This document shows positions 2,544-52,726 of a stretch of 64,000 bases of DNA, piece after piece. Positions within the stretch are counted from its first letter, which is position 1. The number at the start of each line of letters is the position of its first letter. Made by a program: the position numbers and the translations under genes. Source of the stretch: a virus; IMG/VR virus record IMGVR_UViG_3300031111_000010, positions 17,177 through 81,176 of that record; one strand, 5' to 3'. The notes under the pieces were generated by a model. It made no database searches. It saw nothing but the letters and a program-made list of their open reading frames with translations, and was not told where the DNA came from.

Positions 2544-2861
2544 CTATGTTGGTGGGGGGTCAAGTATAGAAAATTCCTCAAAGGTAATAAAGTCTTTTTC
2601 TGCAAACCATTTTTCATGCCAACCAAAAGGATAGCCTTTCATTTTATGAGTATAGTTATGGAAATCATATTCTTTAAAGAAATGTGTTTCTCCCATCATC
2701 TCAATCATAGTGTTAGTTAATACCCAATCCAATTTTATTCTATTCAAGGTGATACTCATTCTTATTACACTACCGTCTTTATTCCATTTATCAGCTATAG
2801 GTTTAAAACGATTTTGGAATTGATCTACTGTTATTAAGGTATATTTTATATATTCATTCAT
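2544..2861 (-). CDS. hypothetical protein with near-C-terminal shared motif
   Basis: ends DFITFEEFSI-LDPPPT; ATGA-coupled. Confidence 0.75.
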   Translation of the reverse strand: MNEYIKYTLITVDQFQNRFKPIADKWNKDGSVIRMSITLNRIKLDWVLTNTMIEMMGETHFFKEYDFHNYTHKMKGYPFGWHEKWFAEKDFITFEEFSILDPPPT

Positions 2862-3145
2862 AGCGTAAATTCATCCTTATCAATAAAGTTATCTACAGGT
2901 TCTTCTTTAATCCAATCGTCATGATAAACCCAATGATCATCAGTAAGTTCTTGTACCCATCTATAGCCATTATTGTAATCATGTCTATGCCTACCACCTT
3001 CTATTAATGGTTGTACTTCTATGATGGTTCCAAAGTATCGTATCATGTCTTTATTAATAAAGAAGTTGCCTTTATAATGATAACCATCAGATTCACTTCC
3101 ATCTAAATAATCCAGTTCTGATATATTTTTTAATAATATTTTCAT
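2858..3145 (-). CDS. hypothetical protein with shared C-terminal motif
   Basis: ends NFIDKDEFTL; ATGA-coupled. Confidence 0.8.
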   Translation of the reverse strand: MKILLKNISELDYLDGSESDGYHYKGNFFINKDMIRYFGTIIEVQPLIEGGRHRHDYNNGYRWVQELTDDHWVYHDDWIKEEPVDNFIDKDEFTL

Positions 3146-3522
3146 ACGCTAAACTCACATTGTTTGATGAATCCTATATCTCTATTATGGTACATCGACT
3201 TCCATATATTTCTAAAGTAATTTCTATCCACATCTTTAGTCCATATGCTGTTATGTTGTTTTAAATATCTACCATGGATATCTGTAGCATAATTGGATAT
3301 AAAGAAGATAGCATTAGTATCACCTGTACGTTGCCAGTATTCCCTTATTACATCACGGTACATAAAATCATCCTTGGCATCTATATTAGTCATGAAGGAT
3401 AGACCCTTGTTTTTTATAAAGTCAGTATCAGGACCGGCTGAATGATTTTTATATGGTGGTACATTTAATCTATCATAGTGACCATGGATAAAATCTGAGG
3501 ATTTTTCATTCCAATAACTCAT
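3142..3522 (-). CDS. hypothetical protein with shared C-terminal motif
   Basis: ends GFIKQCEFSV. Confidence 0.8.
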   Translation of the reverse strand: MSYWNEKSSDFIHGHYDRLNVPPYKNHSAGPDTDFIKNKGLSFMTNIDAKDDFMYRDVIREYWQRTGDTNAIFFISNYATDIHGRYLKQHNSIWTKDVDRNYFRNIWKSMYHNRDIGFIKQCEFSV

Positions 3523-3800
3523 AATACAAACTCACTTTCTTCTATGAACTCTTGATCTTTTGCATATATTATTCCTGTCCTATGTTCATATCCATAACAA
3601 GTAGATTTATCATTATCGATACTTATTAAACCGGGACATGAATAACAGTCATTACATTTACCGGGACAGAAACGATCTATTTTGGTTATTATTCCTTTTT
3701 TTCTTTTTTCATTTTCAGTTTCAGGATAACCTACATAAACCTTTATTTCCATACCTATCTTTAGATGTTCATATGCATCATGTTTGTAGTAGATACTCAT
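3519..3800 (-). CDS. Cys-rich hypothetical protein with shared C-terminal motif
   Basis: CPGKCNDCYSC; ends EFIEESEFVL. Confidence 0.8.
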   Translation of the reverse strand: MSIYYKHDAYEHLKIGMEIKVYVGYPETENEKRKKGIITKIDRFCPGKCNDCYSCPGLISIDNDKSTCYGYEHRTGIIYAKDQEFIEESEFVL

Positions 3801-4312
3801 AATACAAACTCACTTTCTTCTATAAATAATTTTCTTGGTCTTTCTTTCTTTAATGGTTCTAATTCTTTCTTTATTGCTATATATTCATTTAAAGATGTTA
3901 TTGCTGGTCTTTGAATACCGAAAAAATTCTCTTGACTTTCTATCCTTCTTACTATGCTTTTTATCTGTGAATGTTTTGCTTCTAGATGTCTTAGATGTTC
4001 CAGTTTCTTTCTGTAATAGGAATAAAGAGCATCTTGTTTTGATCTATAGGCAAATAGCTTTCTTGGTGTAATATTATGTTCCAATTGCTTTTTTATCCAT
4101 TTCTTGTATCGTGTATTAACTTCATTTGTATGGTAATGATAGTCTGGTACGATCCAATAGCCTTCAGGGGTTTCTCTGTATGCTCTATATCTGTTTTCTA
4201 TTGGTTCTGCATTATAGCTTCCAGAACATGGGTCTTGATATCGATAGAAATAGATTTCTTCTCTTATCTCTATTGGTGCCATCTCATCAAATCGTAGTGG
4301 GAATATGTTCAT
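3797..4312 (-). CDS. hypothetical protein with shared C-terminal motif
   Basis: RETPEGYWI motif; ends LFIEESEFVL. Confidence 0.8.
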   Translation of the reverse strand: MNIFPLRFDEMAPIEIREEIYFYRYQDPCSGSYNAEPIENRYRAYRETPEGYWIVPDYHYHTNEVNTRYKKWIKKQLEHNITPRKLFAYRSKQDALYSYYRKKLEHLRHLEAKHSQIKSIVRRIESQENFFGIQRPAITSLNEYIAIKKELEPLKKERPRKLFIEESEFVL

Positions 4313-4500
4313 AGTTCCATATCGCTTTCTGTTATGAAATTATTATTTGTACATAATTTTTCCATATCATCTATTTGAACATAGTGAGCAGCACAATAAA
4401 ATGGTAGAGTATCTACATCTAGAGTTGTAATTTTGTTTACTCTCAGATTACAGCAATAGTCAGTGTATCGTTTTCTACCTGTTACCGGACAAGTTATCAT
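4309..4500 (-). CDS. small Cys-containing protein with shared C-terminal motif
   Basis: ends NFITESDMEL. Confidence 0.75.
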   Translation of the reverse strand: MITCPVTGRKRYTDYCCNLRVNKITTLDVDTLPFYCAAHYVQIDDMEKLCTNNNFITESDMEL

Positions 4501-5000
4501 AGTTGCATATCGCTTTCTGAAAGGAAGTCACCTAACTTCTCTCTTTCTTCTTTGCATAGTGGGCATTCTTTATGGAATCTGGTATCATAGAATACTGTAT
4601 TATCACCATGCTTAGTACATTGAGTAAATATATTATATATTCCCGGTTCACCTTCTCTAAGTTCTTGGAGTCTTTTGATTGCTTTATCTATTTCTTTTAT
4701 ATCATCTATATCTATTTCTGCTGATGATTGATTGGAATAGGTAGAAGCAGAAGAAGAACCAAAAGATATAGGAGATAATCGATCAGATATAGGAGATAAT
4801 CGATCAACCCTTTTGGGAATATCGATATCACCGTATTCATCTGTCATTATTGAATGATGTATAGGCCATTTGAATTCAGGTTCTTCTGTAGGTTTTCTTG
4901 AAATGAAATTAAGTTCTCTTTCCTTCCAGTAGTTAACAGGATCAGTTTTTTCTTTGATTGCCTTATATACATTCTCATATAAGTCTTTGAATTTCCACAT
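4497..5000 (-). CDS. hypothetical protein (CxxH...CxxC) with shared C-terminal motif
   Basis: ends DFLSESDMQL; internal 21-bp tandem duplication at 4764-4805 (DRLSPIS x2). Confidence 0.8.
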   Translation of the reverse strand: MWKFKDLYENVYKAIKEKTDPVNYWKERELNFISRKPTEEPEFKWPIHHSIMTDEYGDIDIPKRVDRLSPISDRLSPISFGSSSASTYSNQSSAEIDIDDIKEIDKAIKRLQELREGEPGIYNIFTQCTKHGDNTVFYDTRFHKECPLCKEEREKLGDFLSESDMQL

Positions 5001-5057
5001 ATTTATATCCTTATATATACCTTTTTATATACTTTTTTATTTTTCAGAAAGTGAGTA

Positions 5058-5231
5058 TTATTTTATATATCTCTTAGCAGTAAAAGCAATGAACGGATAA
5101 AATAATACGATTGTAAAAAACTGCTTTACATATTCCCATAGAGTAGTATTCGATCTTTGCTCTTGGGTAATTACTATTAGCCATATGATTAATCCACATA
5201 CAAAATATATTCCAAGTAAAAATGATATCAT
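5058..5231 (-). CDS. small membrane protein (57 aa)
   Basis: MISFLLGIYFVCGLIIWLIVI...; ATGA-coupled to 5228..5542. Confidence 0.55.
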   Translation of the reverse strand: MISFLLGIYFVCGLIIWLIVITQEQRSNTTLWEYVKQFFTIVLFYPFIAFTAKRYIK

Positions 5232-5542
5232 ATTTCCATTTCCTTTTCGTTTATAAAGTCTTCTGGTTCTGGTTCTGCTACTTGAATATTAGAAACTTTA
5301 CAATAATGTCCTTTTGATTTCTCCCACCATTGTAAACATTTTGAACACAGGTAATATTGTTTTTTGCCTCTATCACCTTGACCCCAATATATCTGTATTG
5401 GAATTTCTACTTTCTTCTCATGATACATACAGGAAGATAGACTATAAGTTTCATCCTTGCTTGAAATATAATGTCCAAGTTTATGACAATGTTCAGTTGA
5501 AAAATTATAATGAACACATGATAAACAAATTAAATCACTCAT
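5228..5542 (-). CDS. Cys-rich hypothetical protein with shared C-terminal motif
   Basis: two CxxC; ends DFINEKEMEI. Confidence 0.8.
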   Translation of the reverse strand: MSDLICLSCVHYNFSTEHCHKLGHYISSKDETYSLSSCMYHEKKVEIPIQIYWGQGDRGKKQYYLCSKCLQWWEKSKGHYCKVSNIQVAEPEPEDFINEKEMEI

Positions 5543-5949
5543 AGTTCCATATCTTTCTCAGTGAGAAATTCCTCTCTTGGTTCTGTTTTTAATTGTATCT
5601 CCCATCTTCCATTTAAAAATATGTATTTTATTTGACCTAATTGTGGCTTATTGGGAATTACGTTTCGTATCTTTATATCACCTTCTCTTGGTTCCCTTCT
5701 ATGTCTATTATCACCAAGAGGACCATATGTTGCCCATCCATCAGAGTTAAGTACTGATATATTTTCACCCCATCGTTCTCTAAATTCCTGTTCTCTCCTT
5801 GCAAGATGCTCTCTCATTCTTCCTTGAACATTGGCATGTGTTCTAAGCCTATCCAGATGTTCATTGTATTTTTTATTTTCTTTGTATTTAATAAAGAAAA
5901 TAACAACCCATGCAAGAACTATTATACCCATAAGAATAAATCGTATCAT
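5539..5949 (-). CDS. membrane-anchored protein with shared C-terminal motif
   Basis: N-terminal TM helix; ends EFLTEKDMEL; AGGAG RBS. Confidence 0.8.
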   Translation of the reverse strand: MIRFILMGIIVLAWVVIFFIKYKENKKYNEHLDRLRTHANVQGRMREHLARREQEFRERWGENISVLNSDGWATYGPLGDNRHRREPREGDIKIRNVIPNKPQLGQIKYIFLNGRWEIQLKTEPREEFLTEKDMEL

Positions 5950-6177
5950 TAAAATACTCCTTTAAAACAGAAATCAATAATAGAATATCCCACAATGAAA
6001 AATACTAATATCATAAACAATAAAACAAGTTGTGCTCTCATGTCATTACCTCACTTATAAAATATAATAGTTTATTGATATAAGGAAAAATCATTTCCAA
6101 TCCACCAAAGAAAATAAACATCAACGCAAACCATATTATAAGTCCTGCTATCAAACCACAACTATCTTTCGCTATTC

Positions 6178-6564
6178 TTATAATAATTTTAAATCTCCTG
6201 TGATTAAATCGATTTCATCAGACCACCAAGGACCAATAGCACAACAGGTATAAGTAGGTTCCTTAAATTCAGTCCTACCGGCATCCTTGATCAATGCACA
6301 AGGTATCTTTCTGAACTTGGCATGATCATGTACAAAAATCAATACATCTTCATTAGGAACACCAACACATATCTTTACAAATGATTCTTCAAGCCATTGT
6401 TGAGCAGGATCATTCTTAGGAATAAAGATTCTATATTCCTTACTGCCTGAAGCATAGCAATTCAACAAAACAGCTAATGATGCATGAGCACCTTGAGCAA
6501 CCATTTTACCTTTTCTCATATTAAGGTCTTTTCTCATTACGATAACTTGTTTAACTTCTCTCAT
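6178..6564 (-). CDS. pth2: peptidyl-tRNA hydrolase type 2
   Basis: KQVIVMRKDLNMRKGKMVAQGAHAS, IKDAGRTEF, AIGP, ITGDLKLL are PTH2 family motifs. Confidence 0.92.
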   Translation of the reverse strand: MREVKQVIVMRKDLNMRKGKMVAQGAHASLAVLLNCYASGSKEYRIFIPKNDPAQQWLEESFVKICVGVPNEDVLIFVHDHAKFRKIPCALIKDAGRTEFKEPTYTCCAIGPWWSDEIDLITGDLKLL

Positions 6565-6728
6565 ATTTCGTTTACCTTTAACCATTCTTTATATGCATGT
6601 GTATACTTTCTTGGATTCAGTTGGGTATAAAATACAAGTGTATCTCTATCGATTTCATATCCATCAGCATTAATAATATCAGTTTTAACTGAATCTTCTC
6701 CCATATAATATATTTTAAATTCTCTCAT
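6561..6728 (-). CDS. hypothetical protein
   Basis: likely start MREFKIYY at 6728, ATGA-coupled at both ends. Confidence 0.6.
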   Translation of the reverse strand: MREFKIYYMGEDSVKTDIINADGYEIDRDTLVFYTQLNPRKYTHAYKEWLKVNEI

Positions 6729-6916
6729 ATTTCCATTTCCTTTTCTTCTATGAACTCTATTGCTTCCCAATAAAGATATTCCCTATCAATACAATGAAGT
6801 GTACCTGAGAAATAAACATCATTGGGTATGCCCTCATATTTCTCTCTATCGATACACCATCCTACTGAACATCCACCCCTTTGACCATGCTTACATGTAC
6901 TACAACTTATTTCCAT
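6725..6916 (-). CDS. Cys-rich protein with shared C-terminal motif
   Basis: CSTC; ends EFIEEKEMEI. Confidence 0.75.
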   Translation of the reverse strand: MEISCSTCKHGQRGGCSVGWCIDREKYEGIPNDVYFSGTLHCIDREYLYWEAIEFIEEKEMEI

Positions 6917-7308
6917 TATAACATCATTTCACTTTCAGATATAAAAGCCTTTGCTGGTTTGACATACATTCTTTTTGTAACAAACTTCTTTTTTTCGTAT
7001 TCAGCTTCCCATTTAATATCAGCCAGTGTAATGTTATGTGGTATCTCTTTTACTATCCTATATATACCCCTGTCAATAATTTTTAAATAACCAGCACCTG
7101 TCAGATAGCTTCGATATGTATCTACAGTTCTCTCTTTATAACCATTTCCAACACATTCCATCATTAAATTATATCTAAATATTATATTGTGATCAAATCT
7201 TTCATTGATATAATTTCGCATAAAATCCAGAAGTGGTACTCTACCTCTTGGTCTATATCTTGGTAAATCTTCAGGCATCTCTATTCTAAATCCCGGCATG
7301 TGTATCAC
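6916..7308 (-). CDS. possible winged-helix protein with shared C-terminal motif
   Basis: TVDTYRSYLTGAGYLKIIDRGIY is wHTH-like; ends AFISESEMML. Confidence 0.7.
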   Translation of the reverse strand: MIHMPGFRIEMPEDLPRYRPRGRVPLLDFMRNYINERFDHNIIFRYNLMMECVGNGYKERTVDTYRSYLTGAGYLKIIDRGIYRIVKEIPHNITLADIKWEAEYEKKKFVTKRMYVKPAKAFISESEMML

Positions 7309-7468
7309 CTTGTTGTACTTCTAATAATCTTTCAAGTTCAGTTACTTGTCTGACCAAATCCTGAATCATCTTCTCTTTTTGTTCTACATTATATCGTAGT
7401 GACTCTATAAGAGAATCTTTATCTTCTTCTATTTCTTCTGGTTCATTTCCAAGTATATCATTGAACAT
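7286..7468 (-). CDS. small coiled-coil protein
   Basis: heptad pattern; overlaps both neighbours. Confidence 0.6.
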   Translation of the reverse strand: MFNDILGNEPEEIEEDKDSLIESLRYNVEQKEKMIQDLVRQVTELERLLEVQQGDTHAGI

Positions 7469-7733
7469 AAAAATCTTCCTTTGTTAAAAAATTGGCTTGT
7501 GGTCCTGTACATTCATATGGTAATCTTTCTTCTGATAATACTTCTCCTTCCTGATTAAAGTATATAAGGTTATGCCATCTCATATGACCACTACCGCTTT
7601 TCTGTACGCCTTTCATCAAACCACAATACCTACATACCTTTACTTCATCCACCATGATAATTTTGGTTCCTATCCTATGTTGTTTTCTGACTTTACATCG
7701 ATCCTTCTTCTCTTTTTTCCAACTATGTCTCAT
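7458..7733 (-). CDS. hypothetical protein (CxxC) with shared C-terminal motif
   Basis: ends NFLTKEDFYVQ. Confidence 0.75.
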   Translation of the reverse strand: MRHSWKKEKKDRCKVRKQHRIGTKIIMVDEVKVCRYCGLMKGVQKSGSGHMRWHNLIYFNQEGEVLSEERLPYECTGPQANFLTKEDFYVQ

Positions 7734-7999
7734 ATCAAATACATTCCTATCACACCACTAATATATACCATAAAATATGCAAAGAAAACATACATAGAAA
7801 CTTTATCTTTTATATTAACCAAAAAAAGCAATGGAAGACAATATAAAATTCTCATCAGCATTGCTTTATTTAATGTCCATCCAAAATAATTCATACACCA
7901 CAAAATAAAACTATTACTTTCTTCTCCAATAAAAATCGTGAAGACTGAATCTAATATAATTAATAAAAACAATGCTATTGTCCATTTTCTAATTCTCAC
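7730..7999 (-). CDS. small multi-pass membrane protein
   Basis: three hydrophobic segments; GTGA overlap. Confidence 0.65.
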   Translation of the reverse strand: MRIRKWTIALFLLIILDSVFTIFIGEESNSFILWCMNYFGWTLNKAMLMRILYCLPLLFLVNIKDKVSMYVFFAYFMVYISGVIGMYLI

Positions 8000-8379
8000 A
8001 GTTTCATATCACTTTCTTCTATAAATTCTTTATCTTCTTTATCTAACCTGAAAGGGAATTTTAAAGGTTTCCATTCGTTTCTCATTTTCGTTGATTGATA
8101 TTCTATTACTAATTTTTCCAGTTCCCTTCTTTTCCATTCTATATTATAATCATTTAATGCAGGTTCAACACAATATTGAAGTTCTCTTACTATGATATCA
8201 AATGCTCTTTGAGATATCCTTCTGCCTCTAAACATCTGTATGACACGTTCAATCAATCTATCTTCAGTTCGATGTACTTCCCTTTGATATAATTCTCTTT
8301 CTCTTTCTCTCTCCAATCTTTCATACTGTCCATTGAGAATTCTTCTTTGAACTTCATTCCAATCATTATTAGGTGCCAT
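7996..8379 (-). CDS. hypothetical protein with shared C-terminal motif
   Basis: ends EFIEESDMKL. Confidence 0.8.
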   Translation of the reverse strand: MAPNNDWNEVQRRILNGQYERLERERERELYQREVHRTEDRLIERVIQMFRGRRISQRAFDIIVRELQYCVEPALNDYNIEWKRRELEKLVIEYQSTKMRNEWKPLKFPFRLDKEDKEFIEESDMKL

Positions 8380-9092
8380 TATATCTCATCCATTGAAAAG
8401 ATAATTGAATTGCTTTTCAGTTCCATTATCTCTTTTCTTAATGATCTTACTTTATTTTCCAACTTACCAATCATGTTATTTCTCTTTAATACCCTATCCT
8501 TATAATCTGAAATTATTTCTTCTTTTCTTTCAAGCGAATCATATAAATTCTCTAATTCCATTTTTACATCACATTCATCACAATCAACACGATTACTGAA
8601 ATGACCAGTTTCAATAAAATCATCCATCATACGTTGCATCATAAAAGCACTATTACCAGCTACTTCAAATAGTCTGTTCAGGAACATAATCATAGAATCT
8701 TTATTCACATGATCTTTCCAACCTCTGATTTGTGTATGCATATCATCCTTTGTTTCGAAAACCGCTTTTGTTTCTTCTTGGATTTGTGCTTGAACTCTGG
8801 CATGTAATTCTTCTCTTACATCCCAAACAGAAGACTCTTGAGAATCTTCTGTTTCTCTTTCCATCATTATTCTTCTTATTAATTCACTACGGTTCTGTCT
8901 TTCCGTAGTATTACTTTCTGCTGCTCTACGTTCTAGATTAGCTGCCATTTCCATGACTTCAAAAGGTCTTAATGATTTACTAAAATTATTAAGTTTTATC
9001 CATCCATTATTAGAACGAATATTAGGAAAACGCCCATGAAGATTATGATAAGCTGTTGTATAACGTCTTATTGCTGACACAGTTTCATTCAT
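8379..9092 (-). CDS. coiled-coil hypothetical protein
   Basis: 237-aa ORF with C-terminal heptads. Confidence 0.75.
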   Translation of the reverse strand: MNETVSAIRRYTTAYHNLHGRFPNIRSNNGWIKLNNFSKSLRPFEVMEMAANLERRAAESNTTERQNRSELIRRIMMERETEDSQESSVWDVREELHARVQAQIQEETKAVFETKDDMHTQIRGWKDHVNKDSMIMFLNRLFEVAGNSAFMMQRMMDDFIETGHFSNRVDCDECDVKMELENLYDSLERKEEIISDYKDRVLKRNNMIGKLENKVRSLRKEIMELKSNSIIFSMDEI

Positions 9093-9157
9093 TTTATTCT
9101 ACCTTTATATTTTCTTGAAATTCTCCATCCTCTACTGCCAGTTCCATACGATTGTTC

Positions 9158-9505
9158 TCATATTTCACCTATATCATCAAATAAATTTTCTTCTTCTTTT
9201 TCTGGTGGTAAATCAATCCAACTACCATCATCTGTATTCCAACCATCACTACCTGCATTCCAAGAATCACCTGTATCCCAAAGGGTATCTTTATTTTCAG
9301 CAACCATATATAATGATTTCAATTCATTATCCCATTCATACATATTTCCAGTTTTTATAAAGATTTCTTCCAATAGCTCATTAGAATAATAGCTACTTGG
9401 AAAATTCTCTGATTCTGTTACTCTAATCCATACCCCTCTTTTCTCTAATTCTCTATCAGGAAATACACTTTTGTATAGCTTCATTACAGATTCTATTTTA
9501 TTCAT
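9158..9505 (-). CDS. acidic hypothetical protein
   Basis: ATGA-coupled; Trp/Asp-rich tail. Confidence 0.65.
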   Translation of the reverse strand: MNKIESVMKLYKSVFPDRELEKRGVWIRVTESENFPSSYYSNELLEEIFIKTGNMYEWDNELKSLYMVAENKDTLWDTGDSWNAGSDGWNTDDGSWIDLPPEKEEENLFDDIGEI

Positions 9506-9879
9506 AATCCATATACTCCTATCTTAGCTTCACCATGACCACAAGTAGGACATTTTTCTTCGACCAACCAATAGTTAACATGGAATTTGTTAAGTAATAC
9601 TTGTTTGATTATATCGGCATGGCAGGGTTTAGGTGAGCAGTAGCAAATGAGATTACACTTACCATGTTCAATTAGATATGCTTCGATAATCTGCAATGCT
9701 GAGATTATTGGTCTATCACGCTTTTGGATAGCGTTCTTAAGCATTGCTCCATATCGTTGAAGTACGATAGGTCTTAATTCTTCATCTGTTAACTTAAACG
9801 GATTGGCTAACGGTGAAGGTCTACCTACATAAAATCCATCTCCTGTCCAATTTTTTTTGTTGCGTACAGTGATTTCCAT
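9502..9879 (-). CDS. DUF4326-like protein
   Basis: YVGRPSPLANPF ... LICYCSPKPCHADII signature. Confidence 0.8.
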   Translation of the reverse strand: MEITVRNKKNWTGDGFYVGRPSPLANPFKLTDEELRPIVLQRYGAMLKNAIQKRDRPIISALQIIEAYLIEHGKCNLICYCSPKPCHADIIKQVLLNKFHVNYWLVEEKCPTCGHGEAKIGVYGL

Positions 9880-9891
9880 TTCTTCTCCATA

Positions 9892-10200
9892 TCATAACCT
9901 CATTTCTCCATCGGTTAAGAATTTTTCTATTATTTTTTCATATACATGCAAAACATATCTTGGACTACATATCACAGTTTTGATGAATTGTAAATGATTA
10001 TCATCAAAAACACTACCAGTATGCATTGTATAGAATTCTCTTACTTCTGTATTATCTCTGTTTCTTTTATCTATCTCAAACCAGATATTTAAATCTCTAT
10101 TAATCATAGCGATATTTAATACTTTTGATTTTACAGGAACAAGTAATCTTGTTGATGTTTCATGTCCATATTGTAATGAATATTTCCATATTATCTTCAT
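9892..10200 (-). CDS. conserved phage hypothetical protein with shared C-terminal motif
   Basis: MKIIWKYSL...HTG...YVLHVYE pattern; ends KFLTDGEMRL. Confidence 0.8.
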   Translation of the reverse strand: MKIIWKYSLQYGHETSTRLLVPVKSKVLNIAMINRDLNIWFEIDKRNRDNTEVREFYTMHTGSVFDDNHLQFIKTVICSPRYVLHVYEKIIEKFLTDGEMRL

Positions 10201-10475: not shown

Positions 10476-10730
10476 TCATGTTACAACATCATCCTTTCCA
10501 TCAGGAATTTTAATTTTACTTATATATACTTCCATACCACAAGCATCACAATGAAGTACATGTCTATGAGTAGTCCATACTTCATCAAATAAATGAATAC
10601 CCTGTATGCAATTAGAGAACTTCCATGCTTCAAGGATTATACCGTATTCTTTCTCACTCAATCCTTCATCTAATTTAGGATGAGTCATGCCGATATATTT
10701 ATTTATTATCGTTGTCACCAGAATCACCAC
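10476..10730 (-). CDS. hypothetical protein with Zn-ribbon-like motif
   Basis: CIQGIH...HCDACG; start uncertain. Confidence 0.55.
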   Translation of the reverse strand: MVILVTTIINKYIGMTHPKLDEGLSEKEYGIILEAWKFSNCIQGIHLFDEVWTTHRHVLHCDACGMEVYISKIKIPDGKDDVVT

Positions 10731-11361
10731 CTTGACTATACCAATTCATTACTTGTGTTTTTCCAGCTTTCCTTGTTCCCATATAATTCTTCAGTCCATC
10801 AGTAGTTACACTATATGCATATTTGGTTTTATCTTTGTCATGACTCATCACATTATCAAATGAAAATCCCATATTGACAGCTACTTCCTTATCGATGTTC
10901 TCACCCAAAAATACAAATGTCCACTTTCCTGTAGCTTCCAGTTCTTTAATCAGATTTTTTATTCTCTGTCTGCCTTCTTCACCAGCATAATCGCTTGAAG
11001 TATTCTCTTGACCATCTGTTTGAATGATCACCAATGCTGCCTTATCTATTCTCTTTTCAGCATCCATCTTCAATCTAATATTATTTATACAATTCCCAAT
11101 GGCATCATACAAGGCAGTCATACCACCTGTCCACCAATGATTCATTTGTTTTACTTCCGATATTGGCATGTTCTCCACGTTACAATGAATTTGATCATCA
11201 AACTCAATGATGGTCACTATATTATCCATTGTTTCATCATCTTCTTTAAGTAGGGTTGCTCGTTGTTCATTGAAATTTGATATAGCAAGATCAACATTAC
11301 TACCCATTGAACCTGAATGATCTTGAACAAAACCAATATATGTTACTGCATTTGCTTTCAT
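10699..11361 (-). CDS. von Willebrand factor A domain protein
   Basis: MIDAS DHSGSM, GMTALYDAIG, IIQTDGQEN. Confidence 0.9.
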   Translation of the reverse strand: MKANAVTYIGFVQDHSGSMGSNVDLAISNFNEQRATLLKEDDETMDNIVTIIEFDDQIHCNVENMPISEVKQMNHWWTGGMTALYDAIGNCINNIRLKMDAEKRIDKAALVIIQTDGQENTSSDYAGEEGRQRIKNLIKELEATGKWTFVFLGENIDKEVAVNMGFSFDNVMSHDKDKTKYAYSVTTDGLKNYMGTRKAGKTQVMNWYSQGGDSGDNDNK

Positions 11362-21530: not shown

Positions 21531-21707
21531 TTATTTATCCATTGCTTTTTTCTCTGCTTCTAAATCCTTGATTAATATATTCACATAAATATCTTTTTCA
21601 AATTCTGCCATTCTGTTTGTTTCAGATACTGGCATATTACATTTTTTAGCAAGAATATATTGTTGTTCAATTATATCCTGAAAATTACCCCACAAATTAA
21701 TTAACCA
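21531..21707 (-). CDS. gp51-like ORF, probably reached by -1 frameshift from gp26
   Basis: WLINLWGNFQDIIEQQYILAKKCNMPVSETNRMAEFEKDIYVNILIKDLE...; no ATG plus SD at the 5' end; T TTT TTT slip site at 21707-21713. Confidence 0.65.
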   Translation of the reverse strand, partial: WLINLWGNFQDIIEQQYILAKKCNMPVSETNRMAEFEKDIYVNILIKDLEAEKKAMDK

Positions 21708-22453
21708 AAAAAATTTTGCTGAATTGGTATATCACTTACTTCTTCATATTGACAATGTTGGCATTTTACCTTCTGTTCTAATTTCCATCCAAAAGTCATA
21801 TTATCTACTTCTTTTCTTATAGCTTCCATTCCTGCCAGTGGAATGTTCTCTATGAAATACATTCTATCTTTGATATCAATATCACTATCCAATCCAGATG
21901 GTGTTTCGATTTTATCTATTGCACATGCATGAAACATAACCTGAAAGATATATGCTTTCTGAGTATCACTGAGACTTTTTGGGAAGTATTTTGGTTTCAT
22001 ATCTTCTTTCTGGTGTTTTCTTTTTATATGTCTCAGATGCACTTTTATCTGACCAAGTTCTACAATATGATTTTCTTCACTATCTAAATTTGTTAATTCC
22101 AATTCATCCAGATTTACTCTGTTCAATGATTGAGATTTACATTTAGGACAATCAAATTTAAACTCAAGTACTTCTCCTTTTGTCTTCTTACGAATTTCCA
22201 TCAATAAGAACATTTTATCATATAGATAAAGATCATCCATATTGAACCCTTCAGATGAAACACTTGATGATATCAAATCATCAAGTGCCTGTTCTTGTAC
22301 TACATAATTTGTTTCATTCTCATAAGTGAGAAGTCTTTTAATTTGACCCGTTGTTAATGGTTTGAATTTAACTACTTTTTTACTTCCCGGTAATTGACAT
22401 TCAAACTCATATACATTTACATAATCTAAAAAATTCGGTTTGTTATCTGACAT
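21701..22453 (-). CDS. baseplate hub assembly protein, T4 gp26-like
   Basis: LPGSKKVVKFKPL, LLMEIRKKTKGE, CPKC, CQHC, terminal NFF. Confidence 0.8.
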   Translation of the reverse strand: MSDNKPNFLDYVNVYEFECQLPGSKKVVKFKPLTTGQIKRLLTYENETNYVVQEQALDDLISSSVSSEGFNMDDLYLYDKMFLLMEIRKKTKGEVLEFKFDCPKCKSQSLNRVNLDELELTNLDSEENHIVELGQIKVHLRHIKRKHQKEDMKPKYFPKSLSDTQKAYIFQVMFHACAIDKIETPSGLDSDIDIKDRMYFIENIPLAGMEAIRKEVDNMTFGWKLEQKVKCQHCQYEEVSDIPIQQNFFG

Positions 22454-23039: not shown

Positions 23040-23360
23040 TTATTTCTTCATTTTTAATTTTTTTAAGGCTTTTTCTAAATCAGGTATTACTTTGGTTTTG
23101 AAAGTTTTTAGACTTTGCAATGCACCATCATAATTTTCATAACCAATCATTCTTTGAATATCTTTAGGCCAACCAACTAATACTTGAACAAGTCCAAATG
23201 CCTCTTTATCTTTTATACCTTTACCAGCAGTATAATCTTCTTCCATAGGCATATCTTTTTTGCCTTTTCTTTTTTTCTTTTTCATTCCAGTACCATCTTT
23301 GCTTCCAGCACCAGAACCATCACACTTCTCATCCATATATTGTAAAAATCTACTCATCAT
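23040..23360 (-). CDS. putative head-internal protein
   Basis: N-terminus MSRFLQYMDE resembles a capsid-targeting sequence. Confidence 0.55.
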   Translation of the reverse strand: MMSRFLQYMDEKCDGSGAGSKDGTGMKKKKRKGKKDMPMEEDYTAGKGIKDKEAFGLVQVLVGWPKDIQRMIGYENYDGALQSLKTFKTKVIPDLEKALKKLKMKK

Positions 23361-23399: not shown

Positions 23400-25238
23400 T
23401 TATGGTGTTGATGCTGCAACCAGTTCGGTAAAACTTGCTCCTGTCTTAGTAGCAATCAAGTTCAGCACGATAAATTCTGCTGCTCTTGTAGGTTTGATAT
23501 AAATATCACACCAAAGTTCATTTCGATCAATTCTCTCTGCTGAGTTGTTTCTCTCATCACAGACAATTAGGTAATCGAAAATTCCCCTTCTTGCTACGAT
23601 ATCTCTCAAGAAAGGATCGATCATATTAATGATAGCCAATCTTGTGAAGGTATCATTTGGTTCAAACAGGAAGTACTTCAATGCGGTACTTACCGCTTTA
23701 CCGATTATGATAAATAGTCTTCTCACATTAACTCTATTAAATGCTGAAGATTTATCAAGCATGTTTTTCTGACCCCATACAACCTTTCCTTGACCCGGAA
23801 AGCTCACGATAGGATTCAGACCATTCTTATAAAGAATATCTCTTTCACCCTTTACAGGATTCCAACCAAGTTTCCTTACATTATTTATTTGACCTCTATT
23901 CAAACCTGCTGGTGCAAACCATGCTTCTGCTACATCGTCAGTATTTGCGTAAATACCAGCAACATGTCCTGAAGCTGGTATCCATCTATGTTTAGCATTC
24001 CACTTATCATAGACTTCTAACCAGTTTGCATAAGTAGCAACATAACTTGTGTTGATATTCAAATTATATGTATCATGATTTCCAAATCTATAATCTCTAC
24101 AATCAGTAGCTTCACTACCTTTATTATTTACTACTAATGATTTAGGTACATCCAAAACACCAACTGCATCTGCTCTTGCAATACAGGTAGTATTAATATA
24201 TTCCTTAACAGTAGTAGATTTACCAGAATCTATAAAGATATTAACATCAATTGATTCTGGATCAGCGTATAAATCAATTGCCTCCATAATATCAGCATCT
24301 TGTACAACATCACCGTTACCTCTTGCTCCACCACCAAGTGATTGATAATCTGCCATTCCCAATGTAGAGAAGTCTTTATTCTTAAATAATGCTGTAGTTG
24401 CTACTCTAATATAACTTGAGTTATTATTAATCCAATTCTCAACGTAGATATTAGCACCAGTATCATCAACTTCATCAGGATCAGAACTTACAAGATGAAC
24501 TTCTACTATTTCATAGGGAACCGGATTCTTATTAATATTTTCTTGTTTTGCTCTCTTTACTAGAACAAGAAATTGTTTATCATTATCAAAAGAAGCATCT
24601 ACTTCTTGATCTAAATCATCATATAATGTTGCTGATAATCCAAGACTTGCTGCTGCTGTTCCTTGTCTTACACCATTATAAGCATTTCTACCTACAATTG
24701 CTATTTTAACATAGTTACCCCATTCCCCTCTACTTGAAGCAATAAATGCCATATCCTGACCATTCTCTGGTCTACCTGTATCGAATGTGGTATCCTCATC
24801 ACCAAAGTAATCAGGGTCTTTTGAATCAAAATCACTTAACTGATATCCGTTTGCTGTTGTATATGCTGTAAACACATCCCCTCCTGCTGAAACTGCTGTT
24901 GCCATTGTTCCATAACTACCCGCAAAGGTAGCTGATGGAGCTAATACTCTTGTACAGTACAAATTTTGACCGAATTGAAGAAATCCTGCTGCTGCCATGA
25001 TATCTTCATATGATTGACCTCTCTTTGAGAAACCACCTGCTGCTACTGATAATGCTTCCTCTGGTCTACCAAAGATATCAACTAATTCATCAATATCGTT
25101 TACCAATTGTGTCTTTAACTCTGGACCTTTCCATGTATCTCTAAGGGTGATAACACCGATAGATGTTGCTACTGCTGGAATGGTAGTAGTTAAATCAATT
25201 TCGTTTACGTCCACCAAAGGACTTAGATACATTGCCAT
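23400..25238 (-). CDS. tail sheath protein (gp18-like)
   Basis: YLSPLVDVNEIDL, WFAPAGLNRG, AFNRVNVRRLF, LFEPND, IYIKPTRAAEFI. Confidence 0.97.
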   Translation of the reverse strand: MAMYLSPLVDVNEIDLTTTIPAVATSIGVITLRDTWKGPELKTQLVNDIDELVDIFGRPEEALSVAAGGFSKRGQSYEDIMAAAGFLQFGQNLYCTRVLAPSATFAGSYGTMATAVSAGGDVFTAYTTANGYQLSDFDSKDPDYFGDEDTTFDTGRPENGQDMAFIASSRGEWGNYVKIAIVGRNAYNGVRQGTAAASLGLSATLYDDLDQEVDASFDNDKQFLVLVKRAKQENINKNPVPYEIVEVHLVSSDPDEVDDTGANIYVENWINNNSSYIRVATTALFKNKDFSTLGMADYQSLGGGARGNGDVVQDADIMEAIDLYADPESIDVNIFIDSGKSTTVKEYINTTCIARADAVGVLDVPKSLVVNNKGSEATDCRDYRFGNHDTYNLNINTSYVATYANWLEVYDKWNAKHRWIPASGHVAGIYANTDDVAEAWFAPAGLNRGQINNVRKLGWNPVKGERDILYKNGLNPIVSFPGQGKVVWGQKNMLDKSSAFNRVNVRRLFIIIGKAVSTALKYFLFEPNDTFTRLAIINMIDPFLRDIVARRGIFDYLIVCDERNNSAERIDRNELWCDIYIKPTRAAEFIVLNLIATKTGASFTELVAASTP

Positions 25239-40012: not shown

Positions 40013-40297
40013 TTATTTTCCTCTTTTTTCTATTGGTAACCATACATAATTAACTGAAGATTTATAATTTTTATGGTTTTCATCTATTATGTTAAATGTT
40101 AAATATACATGGTTTTCAAGTATTTCCCATATAAATTCAAACTTCATATACTTCTCTTGAACTTTGTGCTTCTTAGCGAGAACCTTTCTCGCTAAAGCAA
40201 TATCATTTTCTTTTATATTGTATTTTTTAGATAGCTTTTTATTCAGGTTATCATTATACTGATTTATACTTTCTTTTATATATTGTTTTAATCTCAT
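40013..40297 (-). CDS. putative head-internal protein
   Basis: N-terminus MRLKQYIKE. Confidence 0.6.
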   Translation of the reverse strand: MRLKQYIKESINQYNDNLNKKLSKKYNIKENDIALARKVLAKKHKVQEKYMKFEFIWEILENHVYLTFNIIDENHKNYKSSVNYVWLPIEKRGK

Positions 40298-40686: not shown

Positions 40687-41025
40687 TTATTTTGTTTTAT
40701 CCTCTGCTTCTTCTTCTCCTTCATCTTCATATTCATCCCATTGAGGATCAACCTTTTCAAGTATGTATTCAAACTCACCTACATGAACTTTTTCCTCATT
40801 AGCAATATCTTGAAGGATTTCTTTTAAATCTTTGTCAGTTGCTTGTGGTATCATCTGTTCATAAAGATTAGCTGCATCCAGTTCAGCTACCATAGCCAAT
40901 CTTGCAATAGCAGCATCCAATAATTTTCCTTTTTTACTCGCTACTAATTCATTAAATTGAACAAACAATTCATTCAACGCTTTTGGTTTTTTACTTTCTG
41001 TTAAATAATTACTTAGTCTACTCAT
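40687..41025 (-). CDS. ferritin-like (rubrerythrin/encapsulated ferritin-type) protein
   Basis: AELDAANLYEQ ... DIANEEKVHVGEF (ExxH); leader MSRLSNYLTE. Confidence 0.8.
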   Translation of the reverse strand: MSRLSNYLTESKKPKALNELFVQFNELVASKKGKLLDAAIARLAMVAELDAANLYEQMIPQATDKDLKEILQDIANEEKVHVGEFEYILEKVDPQWDEYEDEGEEEAEDKTK

Positions 41026-45621: not shown

Positions 45622-45657
45622 TGACAATTTTTGTCAAACATATGACAATTTTTGTCA
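45622..45657. promoter_or_regulatory. tandem palindromic activator (UAS-like) sites
   Basis: TGACAATTTTTGTCA x2, starts 21 bp apart. Confidence 0.75.
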
Positions 45658-47169
45658 TAAGTCTATTTCAATATTCGAATCAATCTCTTTAGACTTATTT
45701 GCTACATACTTAAATTTCATCTTGTTTTTAATGGTTTCCAGATTACATTTTTCACCCCACAAAAACTGAATATGTTCAAGGGTTTTTTGTGCATACTCAG
45801 GATCAAGATCAGCACCAATATGTTCATGTTTGAGTAACAATTCACCCTGTTTGTGATAATTACCATCCATAACGAACACTTTTGGAATACCACTATGTGC
45901 AAAACTTCTAATAATAATTTGGCAGATTTCTTTTGCTGTATTATCTGTGATTACTACTTCTTCCATAAAAACATTGGATTGAATTGCATACATATATAAA
46001 TCCAATTTTCTAACCAGTTTTGGAGTTAAGAAGTTATGCATAAACATCCAATCATTACTTGTACGGAGAACTTTAAACATCTTCTCCATACCCTTCATAG
46101 ATTTATCATCGTAGTTCATCTTTAAATCATGGTCGGTAGTTTCATCATAATCTTTACCATGTTGACCTTTATTCCAACGATCTACAATATCTTCCCACAT
46201 TTCACATCCTATCAAATAGGGATTCATGCTGAAAGGATTTTTTGATTTAACAAGAGAATTGCTATAGTTACATTCAGCATGTTCAGTAGCTGTAAGCAAT
46301 CCTTCCCGAAATAACTGCCTGAGAATTCTTTCATGCCAGAAGGTAGCAAATCCTTCATTCATATATTTGGTTTTGATATTCGGCCAAACATACTGACCCC
46401 ATGCTCTGATAATTTCAAGAATATCTTTTTGCCATGTTGAAAGGTTTCGGGAATGATCAATAACATACCTGATTAAATCTTCAGTAGGTTCAACAGGAGT
46501 TTTATTCTTCAAAGCAACATACAGAGCATTGTTGTATCTTTCCCTTTCCATATCGGCCTGAGAATCATCTTCAAATAAATCCATGAATTCAGTAACAGAT
46601 TTATCATGTTTCTTCTGTTTCTTCTGTTCAAATATACGTTCTATTTTTTCATCTTCAGTTTCTTGACTTAACCAAGGATTTGAATGAAGCATAATTGAAT
46701 GACCAGCATCAATAGTAGATTCAACCAAATCGATACCATACTTATTAATATAATCCTCAATTCGATTGGATGCATTGCTTAATCTACTAGCAATGTTCTC
46801 ATCATTCTCAACATGATACTGATTCATATTGAAGAAAGCAACATGACCTACAACGTGAGCAATAATCAATGCCTGTAGAGCAATTGTATTATCTTTCATT
46901 AGATATGCTCTTGCAGGATTGGTATTGACTACTACTTCATAAGGTAGACCAGCACCTATTTTCTCATAGATAGTTCGTTGTTTTTCATAATCCCTTCCGA
47001 ATTTCCATGATCGAATCTGACCCGGAATTCCATATGCCATTATCTCAAACATCTTTTCAGCAGGAATGACATCGAATTCAATATCACAGAATTCCAGACC
47101 ATTTTCTTTTGCAATTTCATAAATACGCTGTTCTATTTTTTGTAGTCTTTTTAATTCACTATTTTGCAT
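45655..47169 (-). CDS. spoVR: SpoVR/YcgB family protein
   Basis: WKFGRDY, YEVVVNTNP.RAYLMKDN, AHVVGH, TKYMNEGFATFWH, NPYLIG. Confidence 0.95.
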   Translation of the reverse strand: MQNSELKRLQKIEQRIYEIAKENGLEFCDIEFDVIPAEKMFEIMAYGIPGQIRSWKFGRDYEKQRTIYEKIGAGLPYEVVVNTNPARAYLMKDNTIALQALIIAHVVGHVAFFNMNQYHVENDENIASRLSNASNRIEDYINKYGIDLVESTIDAGHSIMLHSNPWLSQETEDEKIERIFEQKKQKKHDKSVTEFMDLFEDDSQADMERERYNNALYVALKNKTPVEPTEDLIRYVIDHSRNLSTWQKDILEIIRAWGQYVWPNIKTKYMNEGFATFWHERILRQLFREGLLTATEHAECNYSNSLVKSKNPFSMNPYLIGCEMWEDIVDRWNKGQHGKDYDETTDHDLKMNYDDKSMKGMEKMFKVLRTSNDWMFMHNFLTPKLVRKLDLYMYAIQSNVFMEEVVITDNTAKEICQIIIRSFAHSGIPKVFVMDGNYHKQGELLLKHEHIGADLDPEYAQKTLEHIQFLWGEKCNLETIKNKMKFKYVANKSKEIDSNIEIDL

Positions 47170-48514
47170 CGGTTTCCTCTCTTTCTGGATGGTGTAAACT
47201 CAACATGTGCTGAAGACAAGGCCAAATATGACTTTTATCTTTAATAACTGACAATAAGAAATGTAAATCATTATTGATCCAAAACTTACCTTCCTTACTC
47301 AAAGTAGATTCCTGAAATTTCCAATTCTTTAGACACTCAGGAAGTAGAGTAGAGAAACCATACTCATACTGTATATCACTATCACCAAACAAATCGTGAT
47401 ATGGTTTAATCTCAACATAAGAAAGCATATTGATTTTTTTAGCAACCATATCTTCCATTGATGATACTGCTTCCTTTGGTTCCCAATCTTCACCATCAGA
47501 GCAGTATACAGCATAAATGTTCCATTCATCAAGTGGATATTCAGTATCAATGATATAGTTGGCTTTATCAAATGCAGACTTAGCAACTGTACCACCTGTT
47601 TCACCACCATAGAAGAAAGTATTTTCATCTACTTCTAATGCACGATCAGTATGTTGGATAAATCGAATTTCAACTGCTTCATACTGCTTACGGAGAAAAT
47701 TAATCATCCAAAACAATAGACTTTTGACAAGATATTTTTTATCGGGAGTCATTGAACCTGATACATCCATCATAGCAAATACTACTGCCTTTGAACAAAT
47801 CTCTTTTTCTTCTTCGATCTGTTTGTATCGTAAATCATCATCATGAATGAGGAAACCAGTAGGTTCATTACCATTTAATTCACCATCCACTATGATACGA
47901 ACAGCTTCTTCAATATCACCTTTGCCTTGCTGTAATGCTTTACAGGCATCTTCATATGAACAATCTGTTTGTTCCATTACTTCTCTAACAAACATGATGT
48001 TACGCTTTGCTGCTTCTCTCATAGTACGTTTTTTATGAATCCTTGCAAACGTACCTTTTTTGGAGATGGATTCAAACTTCCATCCTTTGGGTATTTCAAT
48101 GGAGTTTTTCTTTTTCGGATCAAGCCAAGGTAAACCTAAATCTTCCATCATTACATCAATCAACTGATCAATATCAATTTCAACTTCCATATCACCAGCA
48201 CCATGACCTTGACCAGCACCTTGACCTTGATCACCACCTTGTTTTGGTCTTCTACCAATAACATCACCAGCTTGACCATCACCTTGACCAATACCACCAC
48301 CACCTTTACCGGGAGTAGCATGGATAAAACGATAGTCTTTTAATCCCTTTACTGGTACTCTGACTTTCTTTTTACCTTCTTGGGTAATGATATTCTCAGT
48401 ACCAATGACATCTCTTACATTTTTTCGGATAGCTTCATCTATTTTCTCTTGATGTCTTTTGGCATCAGTAACCCCTTTTTTGGTATCCCATGTTTCATGA
48501 TATACAATTGTCAT
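47159..48514 (-). CDS. yeaH: YeaH/YhbH (DUF444) vWA protein
   Basis: DAKRHQEKI, Gly-rich tract, DDLRY, MMDVSGSM, ETGGT, SDGEDW. Confidence 0.93.
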   Translation of the reverse strand: MTIVYHETWDTKKGVTDAKRHQEKIDEAIRKNVRDVIGTENIITQEGKKKVRVPVKGLKDYRFIHATPGKGGGGIGQGDGQAGDVIGRRPKQGGDQGQGAGQGHGAGDMEVEIDIDQLIDVMMEDLGLPWLDPKKKNSIEIPKGWKFESISKKGTFARIHKKRTMREAAKRNIMFVREVMEQTDCSYEDACKALQQGKGDIEEAVRIIVDGELNGNEPTGFLIHDDDLRYKQIEEEKEICSKAVVFAMMDVSGSMTPDKKYLVKSLLFWMINFLRKQYEAVEIRFIQHTDRALEVDENTFFYGGETGGTVAKSAFDKANYIIDTEYPLDEWNIYAVYCSDGEDWEPKEAVSSMEDMVAKKINMLSYVEIKPYHDLFGDSDIQYEYGFSTLLPECLKNWKFQESTLSKEGKFWINNDLHFLLSVIKDKSHIWPCLQHMLSLHHPEREETDAK

Positions 48515-48535
48515 AAGTTAGTCCTTTATATTTTA

Positions 48536-48611
48536 TGGTGGATGGGAAGGGATTCGAACCCTCAACCTCTGCCTTGCAAGGGCATTGCTCTCCCGTTGAG
48601 CTACCGCACCC
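48536..48611 (-). tRNA. tRNA-Ala(UGC)
   Basis: G3-U70 pair, CT-TGC-AA loop, GGTTCGAATCC, encoded ACCA; one C-C mismatch in acceptor stem. Confidence 0.88.
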
Positions 48612-48625
48612 ACATTCAACTTATA

Positions 48626-51288: not shown

Positions 51289-52248
51289 ATGAATATATTG
51301 GTTACAGGAGCATGTGGTTTAGTAGGTTCACATTTATGTGATTTGTTGTTATCTCAAGGACATACAGTGTTTGGCCTTGATAATTTATTGAATGGTAAGA
51401 TCGAAAATCTACCTAAAGGAGTAGATTTCATTAAACATGATGTTGAAATACCACTTTGTGGTAATCCATTTTTAGGTGTTGATATTGATAGGATATATCA
51501 TTTGGCTTGTCCTGCTTCACCAGTACATTATCAACGTACACCTATTAAGACAATGTTATCATCGATCATGGGAACATATAATATGCTTGAATTGGCATAT
51601 GCTAATAATGCCAGATTTCTTTATACTTCCAGTTCAGAAGTGTATGGAAACACAAAGAACCAACCCATATCCGAATTACAGTTAGGAGAAGATATAGATA
51701 CATTAGCAGATCGATCTTGTTATGTAGAAGGTAAACGGGCATCGGAAACTCTAATATGGAATTATATCAAAGAGAAAGAATTGGATGTGAGAATTGCAAG
51801 GTTGTTTAATATCTTTGGTCCAAGGATGGCAAAAGATGATGGTAGAGTAATAGCAAGTTTTATGTATGAACGTCCTATTCATATTCATGGTAAAGGAGAA
51901 CAGAAACGATCTTTTACTTATGTTACAGATTGTGTTGAAGGATTGAATAGATTGATGGAATATGATAATCCCCATAAACCCATTAATATCGGTAATCCTA
52001 ATGGTTATATTAGTATTAAGAAGTTAGCTATGATAATGTTTGAATTAATGGAAGAAGAACTTGTTGAAGGAATGGATGAATTTTGTGAGGATTGTACAGT
52101 AGTTCATACAGCAGATAGGTCAGACTCAGAAGTATTTCAGCGTATGCCTGATATTTCAGAAGCTATCTATTATTTAAAATGGAGTCCTAAAGTTCCTATT
52201 ATAGAAGGACTTGAAATGACAATAAAGGAGATGAAGAATGACGATTAG
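51289..52248 (+). CDS. NAD-dependent epimerase/dehydratase, UDP-glucuronate decarboxylase-like
   Basis: GACGLVG, IYHLACPASPVHY, SSSEVYG, RSCYVEGKR, ARLFNIFGPRM..DDGRV; TG-TATAAT promoter upstream. Confidence 0.9.
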   Translation: MNILVTGACGLVGSHLCDLLLSQGHTVFGLDNLLNGKIENLPKGVDFIKHDVEIPLCGNPFLGVDIDRIYHLACPASPVHYQRTPIKTMLSSIMGTYNMLELAYANNARFLYTSSSEVYGNTKNQPISELQLGEDIDTLADRSCYVEGKRASETLIWNYIKEKELDVRIARLFNIFGPRMAKDDGRVIASFMYERPIHIHGKGEQKRSFTYVTDCVEGLNRLMEYDNPHKPINIGNPNGYISIKKLAMIMFELMEEELVEGMDEFCEDCTVVHTADRSDSEVFQRMPDISEAIYYLKWSPKVPIIEGLEMTIKEMKNDD

Positions 52249-52726
52249 TTGGGATGAGTATTTTATGACAATGGCATATCTGGCAGCAATGAGAAGTAAA
52301 GATGAATCAACTCATTGTGGTGCTGTGATTGTAGATGAAGTTAATAATGTGGTTGCTACTGGTTATAACTCATTTGTAAGAGGAATAGATGATAACAATC
52401 CAGATAGACAAAAAAGACCAGAAAAATATTTATGGTTTGAACATGGAGAAAGAAACGCTATTTATTCTGCTGCCATGAGAGGATGTAAACTTAATGGATG
52501 TAAAATATATGTTACTGGTATTCCTTGTGCTGATTGTGCAAGAGGAATAATTCAAGTTGGTATTAAGGAAGTCATTGTTGAAAAAAGAGAAAGTTTTGGT
52601 GAAGAATGGAATGATAGTATGAAGGTAACAATGAAAATGTTTGAAGAAGCTGGAATTAAATTTAGATTGACAGATGTAAAATTTATTAGAGAGATATATG
52701 AGTTTACAAGGGGAGAAAAGCTGTAA
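52238..52726 (+). CDS. dCMP deaminase
   Basis: SWDEYFM, RSKD, GYN, HGERNA, PCADC. Confidence 0.93.
   Translation: MTISWDEYFMTMAYLAAMRSKDESTHCGAVIVDEVNNVVATGYNSFVRGIDDNNPDRQKRPEKYLWFEHGERNAIYSAAMRGCKLNGCKIYVTGIPCADCARGIIQVGIKEVIVEKRESFGEEWNDSMKVTMKMFEEAGIKFRLTDVKFIREIYEFTRGEKL

Follow-up and report, generated by a model that had tools for sequence, protein, structure and literature searches.

Why should a run of small viral genes that otherwise have nothing in common all end in the same peptide? This question is raised by a 64,000-nucleotide stretch of DNA (the window, bases 17177–81176 of the 81,176-nt viral record IMG/VR IMGVR_UViG_3300031111_000010). At positions 2544–10200, where every gene lies on the minus strand and most overlap as ATGA, an array encodes fourteen proteins that share a C-terminal tag. 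The original prediction, made from the letters of the window, quoted these fourteen C-termini, gave them the consensus F-[IL]-x3-[DE]-[FM]-x-[LIV] and read them as an addressing system. All fourteen ends are present on the minus strand in their expected places, and the consensus stands at or near the C-terminus in 14/14 of the listed open reading frames (ORFs). Positions below are those of the window unless marked as genome positions, and residues of the tag are counted back from its last one, −1.

The tag and where it lies

The fuller motif is a decapeptide, [DE]-F-[IL]-x-E-x-[DE]-[MF]-x-[IL]-COOH, because the residue before the Phe is Asp or Glu in 24/38 tags. The last residue is Ile, Leu or Val in all 38, Glu occupies −6 in 20 of them, and the fixed hydrophobic positions are −9, −8, −3 and −1. 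The tagged ORFs of the window are the following.

2544–2861, minus strand: last gene of the array, 105 residues, FITFEEFSI followed by six extra residues (LDPPPT); no Pfam family
2858–3145, minus strand: 95-residue ORF ending FIDKDEFTL; ATGA overlap with the next gene
3142–3522, minus strand: 126-residue ORF ending FIKQCEFSV
3519–3800, minus strand: 93-residue Cys-rich ORF ending FIEESEFVL
3797–4312, minus strand: 171-residue ORF ending FIEESEFVL; body matches phrog_13631 (unknown function)
4309–4500, minus strand: 63-residue Cys-rich ORF ending FITESDMEL
4497–5000, minus strand: 167-residue ORF ending FLSESDMQL
5228–5542, minus strand: 104-residue Cys-rich ORF ending FINEKEMEI
5539–5949, minus strand: 136-residue ORF ending FLTEKDMEL; its N-terminal helix is hydrophobic (MIRFILMGIIVLAWVVIFFI...)
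6725–6916, minus strand: 63-residue Cys-rich ORF ending FIEEKEMEI
6916–7308, minus strand: 130-residue ORF ending FISESEMML; BLAST homologue in the cousin phage G017 ends in another dialect
7458–7733, minus strand: 91-residue ORF ending FLTKEDFYV plus Q; orthologue in the relative G001 (36% over 77 residues) ends FLNEDDFKI
7996–8379, minus strand: 127-residue ORF ending FIEESDMKL
9892–10200, minus strand: 102-residue DUF7352 protein; fold over residues 1–89, a short linker, then FLTDGEMRL on a low-confidence tail

The placement of the motif is terminal, and the possibility that it is equally frequent at internal positions fails in two scans. First, the expression F[ILV]xxx[DE][FM]x[LIVM], run through six frames of the whole 81,176-nt record, gave 19 matches. 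Thirteen end exactly at a stop codon (12 in the window, one at genome 15847–16128), one stops a single residue and one six residues short of it, and the remaining four comprise two on the plus strand, one across a stop and one 24 residues before a stop. Second, among the 139 called ORFs of the record of at least 45 residues, 13 carry a terminal and none an internal tag; over the called ORFs of six genomes, internal matches to the dialect of the window number zero, except for one in the cousin phage G028. The ORF caller was a crude greedy one with a lower limit of 45 residues, and it missed two real tagged ORFs, those at 6725–6916 and 7458–7733. Upstream of the window lie a fifteenth tagged ORF (FLNEKEMEV), a variant end (FFTEMEFAL, genome 10473–10682) and three partial ends (...DDFKL, ...DDFGI and ...KDFEI). 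One to six extra residues follow the motif in 8/58 tags of this dialect. The two enzymes in the same array, Pth2 (6178–6585) and DUF4326 (9502–9879), lack the tag, as had been predicted. In a control of 73 loci from other Pth2-bearing phages (1.34 Mb), a looser expression gave 3 C-terminal against 188 other matches and no tag arrays. No description of such a tag was found in full-text searches of the main texts of non-subscription journals.

Selection on the peptide

Our data show that selection acts on the peptide and not on the nucleotides. The codons at the Phe and Ile/Leu positions vary, as the original prediction had it. In tests on 38 tags chosen without any DNA pattern, synonymous codons fit the usage of the genome at F−9 (p=0.17), I−8 (p=0.08), E−6 (p=0.70), E−4 and D−4 (p=0.81 and 0.36) and F−3 (p=0.41). 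Position −8 is written with three Ile codons, five Leu codons and Phe, and position −3 with ATG or TTT, codons that are two bases apart. Only the last codon is skewed, towards NTA (p=0.002 and 0.007), because the ATGA overlap with the next start requires it; Ile or Leu also closes the tags that are followed by a TAA or TAG stop, by a gap or by a few further residues. Conservation is thus not stronger at the nucleotide level, synonymous sites varying as the genome does.

These results bear directly on the proposal that the motif is a nucleotide-level by-product, such as a signal for ribosome binding or coupling, a promoter, or a linker used in recombination where genes meet. Such a reading could point to the ATGA overlap of most tagged genes with the next start, with its NTA bias, to purine-rich GAR codons at ribosome-binding-site distance, to two tags that score as weak sigma-70-like sites, and to the PeSL (promoter/stem-loop) motifs that the available text of PMC4122927 describes in hyperplastic regions of T4-like phages. 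It is at odds, apart from the codon data, with the persistence of tags before TAA or TAG stops and gaps, with DUF7352 orthologues that retain the tag at 35–40% identity and with genes that overlap without spacers. An RNA hairpin masking the next start was suggested by a TTYATA/TATGAR pairing seen by eye; folding of 68-nt junctions gave no signal (tagged, n=21, mean minimum free energy −5.4 and z −0.12, versus z 0.0 for others, n=123; Mann–Whitney p=0.23). A promoter reading was likewise rejected because the region holds fewer sigma-70-like sites than its shuffles (74 versus 92) and because the −10-like part would include the next start codon.

A late-promoter motif, TATAAATA, lies within 80 nt upstream of 1/50 C-tagged genes, 4/58 genes with an N-terminal leader (described below) and 73/972 other genes, which is not a significant difference; it occurs 29 times in the genome, about the estimate from base composition, and therefore defines no expression class.

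Phages that carry the tag

The record analysed here (G000) belongs to a contractile-tailed, T4-like phage, with PHROG matches to tail sheath, large terminase, major head protein and portal. A second contig of 132 kb (G002, IMG/VR 3300031111_000007) encodes homologues of T4 gp41, gp55 and UvsX and a gp43-type polymerase. Genome bases 2–127 of G000 are the reversed start of G002 (126 nt, 100% identity) and CheckV puts completeness at 36% and 66%, respectively; the two are therefore probably parts of one phage genome of ~213 kb. The GenBank phage collection held no close relative of this phage.

Further carriers were sought with a degenerate DNA pattern in IMG/VR and metagenome contigs. G001, a syntenic relative of 28 kb with 50–85% protein identity, has 10 tagged ORFs in 5 kb, G003 has 4–6, and eight small metagenome contigs have 2–3 each. 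A comparison of G000 with G001 shows conserved flanking genes but little conservation of the tagged ones, most of which are not shared; the set of tagged genes turns over fast. The tags at 3519–3548 and 3797–3826, on adjacent and otherwise unrelated genes, have the same DNA except for the third base of the Phe codon, and this near-identity suggests that the tail was recently copied between genes 3519–3800 and 3797–4312.

Unrelated bodies and an appended tail

The protein bodies had been called unrelated, and they are: when 32 tagged proteins (four contigs) were compared by BLASTP without their last 12 residues, only three pairs fell below E=0.01, and each joined proteins of different genomes. 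In Pfam, 58/59 tagged proteins of this dialect fall in no family, the exception in the window being the DUF7352 protein (9892–10200). Pfam and PHROGs searches of these 59 proteins and of 22 from the second dialect described below yielded no annotated function, and the PHROG families matched are all of unknown function; a single MurG-like match, from a fermentation metagenome, was set aside as probably due to chance. C-tagged bodies have a median isoelectric point (pI) of 6.5–7.3 and 3.8–4.4% Cys, and the residues that precede the tags are polar and Pro-containing.

The DUF7352 protein allows the tail to be compared with and without its body. An exhaustive HMMER search returned 185 homologues, of which 152 were inspected. 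In the closest 16 (plus one variant), with body identities of 35–92%, the tag follows the conserved ...HIYEK end of the domain; the other 135 end at the domain. Distant homologues thus lack the tag, a point that the original prediction had singled out for checking. The AlphaFold model of the window protein has a beta-sandwich with a predicted local distance difference test score (pLDDT) of 94–97 over residues 1–90, falling to 56 and 43 over the tag. Because only the closest homologues carry the tag after the domain and because the pLDDT falls over it, the tag on DUF7352 is an appended flexible tail that selection holds while the body diverges. A locus search with the DUF7352 protein found nothing, and a word-index homologue search gave only two close relatives.

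A second dialect in cousin phages

Two cousin phages were found through their major head protein, G017 (73% identity, 161 kb) and G028 (55% identity, 204 kb, CheckV 85%). Window-dialect tags are few or absent in both. A second ending, [ILV]-P-[DE]-[DE]-[LMW]-F-x-[ILM]-COOH, closes 8 small proteins in G017 and 14 in G028; it is never internal, although 1–3 residues sometimes stand beyond it in the two genomes (7/22 tags). The two dialects agree in several positions: −8 is hydrophobic, −6 acidic, −3 Phe or Met and −2 often Glu, and the last residue is aliphatic. The G017 homologue of the protein at 6916–7308 (BLAST 45% over 42 residues, E 3e-8) ends LPDSWFEI in place of FISESEMML. Such a switch of dialect on a homologous body is what would be expected if the partner that reads the tail had a pocket varying from lineage to lineage.

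In phage T4, 0/274 called ORFs match either dialect. The small T4 ORFs 46.2 and 30.7 end CEVFDI and NEFDI, like the cousin dialect; these are two cases and no enrichment.

Proposed docking to a common partner

The best reading, to which we give roughly even chances, is that the tag is a docking or address peptide, non-degradative in function, directed to some hub. The tag would be a short linear motif on a flexible tail behind unrelated folded bodies; one partner would bind the tail and so gather a fast-changing set of small accessory proteins in one place. Purely by analogy, we would favour as reader a hub of phage replication or transcription, for instance the sliding clamp, although the clamp itself we consider an unlikely reader when taken as a specific claim. 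More tentatively, and with a good deal of doubt, we propose that T4-like sediment phages use a plug-in address code, in which a clade-specific decapeptide, with dialects that co-evolve with one phage-encoded hub (e.g. a clamp tool-belt), loads 15–20 interchangeable accessory proteins without known relatives per genome, such that a new gene would join the infection machinery by gaining the tail.

The addressing interpretation in the original prediction is thus partly supported, by peptide-level selection, terminal placement, unrelated bodies, the appended tail on DUF7352 and the second dialect; two of the destinations that it offered, capsid loading and the PrkA/YeaH pair, are disfavoured, as detailed below, which leaves a degron or a host complex as candidates from its list.

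The closest precedent is found in T4 itself. According to the available text of PMC2988020, T4 gp43, gp55 and gp33 bind the clamp through C-terminal epitopes that are hydrophobic and acidic, sit on variable linkers and can replace one another. Read from the sequence records, the ends are ...SLDFLFG (gp43), ...SLDFLYEAND (gp55) and ...TLDFLL (gp33), and RB69 gp43 ends ...SLFDMFDF. Like the tag, these epitopes are short, combine hydrophobic with acidic residues, lie at the C-terminal end or close to it behind a flexible linker, and occur on otherwise unrelated proteins; they dock all of their bearers on one hub and work despite a few trailing residues. The T4 D-F-L core resembles [DE]-F-[IL] of the tag, and the RB69 ...DMFDF resembles [DE]-[LM]-F-x-[ILM] of the cousin dialect. 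There are differences, however. T4 has three epitope bearers, whereas 15–20 proteins per genome are tagged here, and only the D-F-[IL] core is shared with the T4 consensus [ST]-L-D-F-L-[FYL], the tag having a polar residue after F-[IL] and an added half, [DE]-[MF]-x-[IL].

A looser precedent is given by the acidic C-terminal tails of T7 gp2.5 and gp4 and of bacterial SSB. These tails, like the tag, combine an acidic run with a hydrophobic last residue and bring several proteins to one partner. They differ in ending in Phe after the acidic run and in having few bearers, while the tag has fixed hydrophobic residues at −9, −8, −3 and −1.

Several observations weigh against docking, and against the clamp in particular. 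First of all, we infer a single reader, with a pocket that would differ between lineages, from sequence, and the link between the dialects consists of one homologous pair (42 aligned residues) together with the likeness of the motifs. Second, the expected position of the next gene's ribosome-binding site coincides with the GAR codons of the tag, so that part of the tag's acidity may serve translation. Third, the polymerases of the clade end unlike the tags (DETAFKAFF in G002, MIDSIFG in G017, CFDIFF in G028), and the gp55 (late sigma) homologues of the clade (G002 51829–52302, G003 21592–22035, G017 23799–24230, G028 157165–157602) have basic or other tails in place of a hydrophobic and acidic end; that of G002 ends in a Lys-rich tail, KKKKRKKAKK. 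The clamp, if it is the reader, would therefore recognise the tags by another motif than the one found in its classical clients. Finally, clamp and clamp-loader genes were not found in either G000 or G002. Searches with phmmer using T4 gp44, gp62 and gp55 gave homologues in G017 and G028 and no gp44 or gp62 in G000 or G002, a T4 gp33 query gave no homologue, and PF02916 and PF09116 searches for the clamp gave no match, with the control genomes barely scoring either.

G017 and G028 are the only genomes in which a clamp was identified, beside gp62/gp44. The 249-residue G017 protein at this place is modelled with a pLDDT of 54, yet every top Foldseek hit is a sliding clamp; locus searches with it returned G017 and G028 themselves only. 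A complex prediction of three copies of the G017 clamp with the window DUF7352 protein scored 0.00 (mark 0.32) and, being run with no controls, bears neither way on binding.

Other readings of the tag

The alternative that survives best is a degron. Proteins bearing the tail, which are probably early ones, would be passed to a protease of the ClpXP, Lon or FtsH type, encoded by host or phage, and removed jointly at a set time. The ssrA peptide, a C-terminal degron read by ClpX or FtsH, acts in this way, and degrons of its type resemble the tag in being terminal peptides that can be moved between proteins and are read by one machine. The tail described here is terminal, flexible and hydrophobic at its last and third-last residues, and it is also found on a membrane-anchored member, a kind of substrate that FtsH-type enzymes could handle. 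A degron would leave the same sequence pattern as docking, a point that counts against our preferred reading. On the other hand, the tag is acidic, unlike the LAA-type ends of such degrons, and it tolerates extensions; the extra residues after the motif in both dialects fit poorly with a reader of the free carboxylate, although this is a mild argument. A universal host protease would furthermore leave the two dialects in related phages unexplained, though different hosts could account for them. Taken together, we regard a degron as improbable, while giving it real weight.

Capsid loading, which the original prediction had offered as an option, is in our view very unlikely. On this reading the tail would play at the C-terminus the part of the T4 capsid-targeting sequence, the prohead protease would cut at F-[IL]-x-E, and the tagged proteins would travel in the capsid and be injected. 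The likeness is considerable: [DE]-F-[IL]-x-E is the end of the T4 ipII/ipIII leader MKTYQEFIAE, as read from the T4 record, and the T4 internal proteins, in the available text of PMC3012670, are a diverse set with only the targeting sequence in common. In both systems one short terminal peptide, with a shared E-F-I-x-E core, is carried by diverse and fast-changing small proteins. The T4 sequence is N-terminal, cleaved and carried by basic packaged proteins, whereas the tag described here is C-terminal. The genome moreover has an N-terminal tag of its own, MR[FL]KxY[LI]xE, which shares the aromatic-[LI]-x-E core, a point in favour of capsid loading, but which is carried by basic (median pI 9.3), Cys-poor (0.5%) proteins, in contrast to the Cys-rich C-tagged bodies of ordinary pI, one of which (5539–5949) has an N-terminal membrane helix. 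The Glu of the supposed cleavage site is present in just 20/38 tags, and in the second dialect this register contains no [LI]-x-E.

The N-terminal leader is found in the window at 23040–23360, 40013–40297 and 40687–41025, upstream of it at genome 3083–8500 and 13407–14120, and at loci of G017 and G002. A loose expression for it matches 11 ORFs in G000, 9 in G002 and 41 in G017, with roughly 7 and 35 judged to be true leaders.

The other named destination, the PrkA/YeaH pair, is highly improbable. The tag would serve as a substrate tag for a phage module of PrkA (AAA+), DUF444 (YeaH) and SpoVR, its acidic tail being caught by the metal ion-dependent adhesion site (MIDAS) of DUF444, which we take to be vWA-like. 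The triad is indeed encoded at 45655–50608, between terminase and head genes, and vWA MIDAS sites bind extended peptides according to the available text of PMC7159879. The module is, however, absent from the 204-kb G028, also at the syntenic place, despite the 14 tagged proteins of that phage. DUF444 and a PrkA-like Walker A protein occur also in G017, and neither was found in G028. A 220-residue protein at 10699–11361 that looked vWA-like by eye had no match in Pfam and PDB sequence searches.

Weakest of all, a nucleotide-level origin of the motif, already largely refuted by the codon and junction data above, is hardly credible.

Significance of a proposed docking peptide

As shared terminal docking peptides the tags would be of a known kind; they are unusual in how large the tagged library is, in how fast it changes and in having dialects. 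The small genes in plastic regions of large phages are mostly without known function or a handle for study. A portable tail common to 15–20 proteins per genome would be such a handle, since one bait peptide could find their machine and define a functional class. If the reader is a phage hub, docking through the tag would offer phages a general means of connecting new genes to replication, transcription or takeover of the host, and the T4 clamp "tool-belt" idea, which covers three proteins, would extend to an entire library. Dialect differences between related phages constitute a natural experiment for finding the reader by co-variation, and the tag could serve as a cargo-recruiting tool in engineered phages.

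Further observations on replication genes

G002 encodes a UDG-family protein (94961–95593) immediately after the replicative helicase; its end, LLSEDDFKL, matches the tag in part, and neither G017 nor G028 has a homologue of it. In G028, the DNA polymerase is split into two ORFs ~5 kb apart (117047–117871 and 122896–124752) and the gp44 clamp-loader homologue is likewise split in two (102124–104453), with extra ORFs between the halves in both cases.

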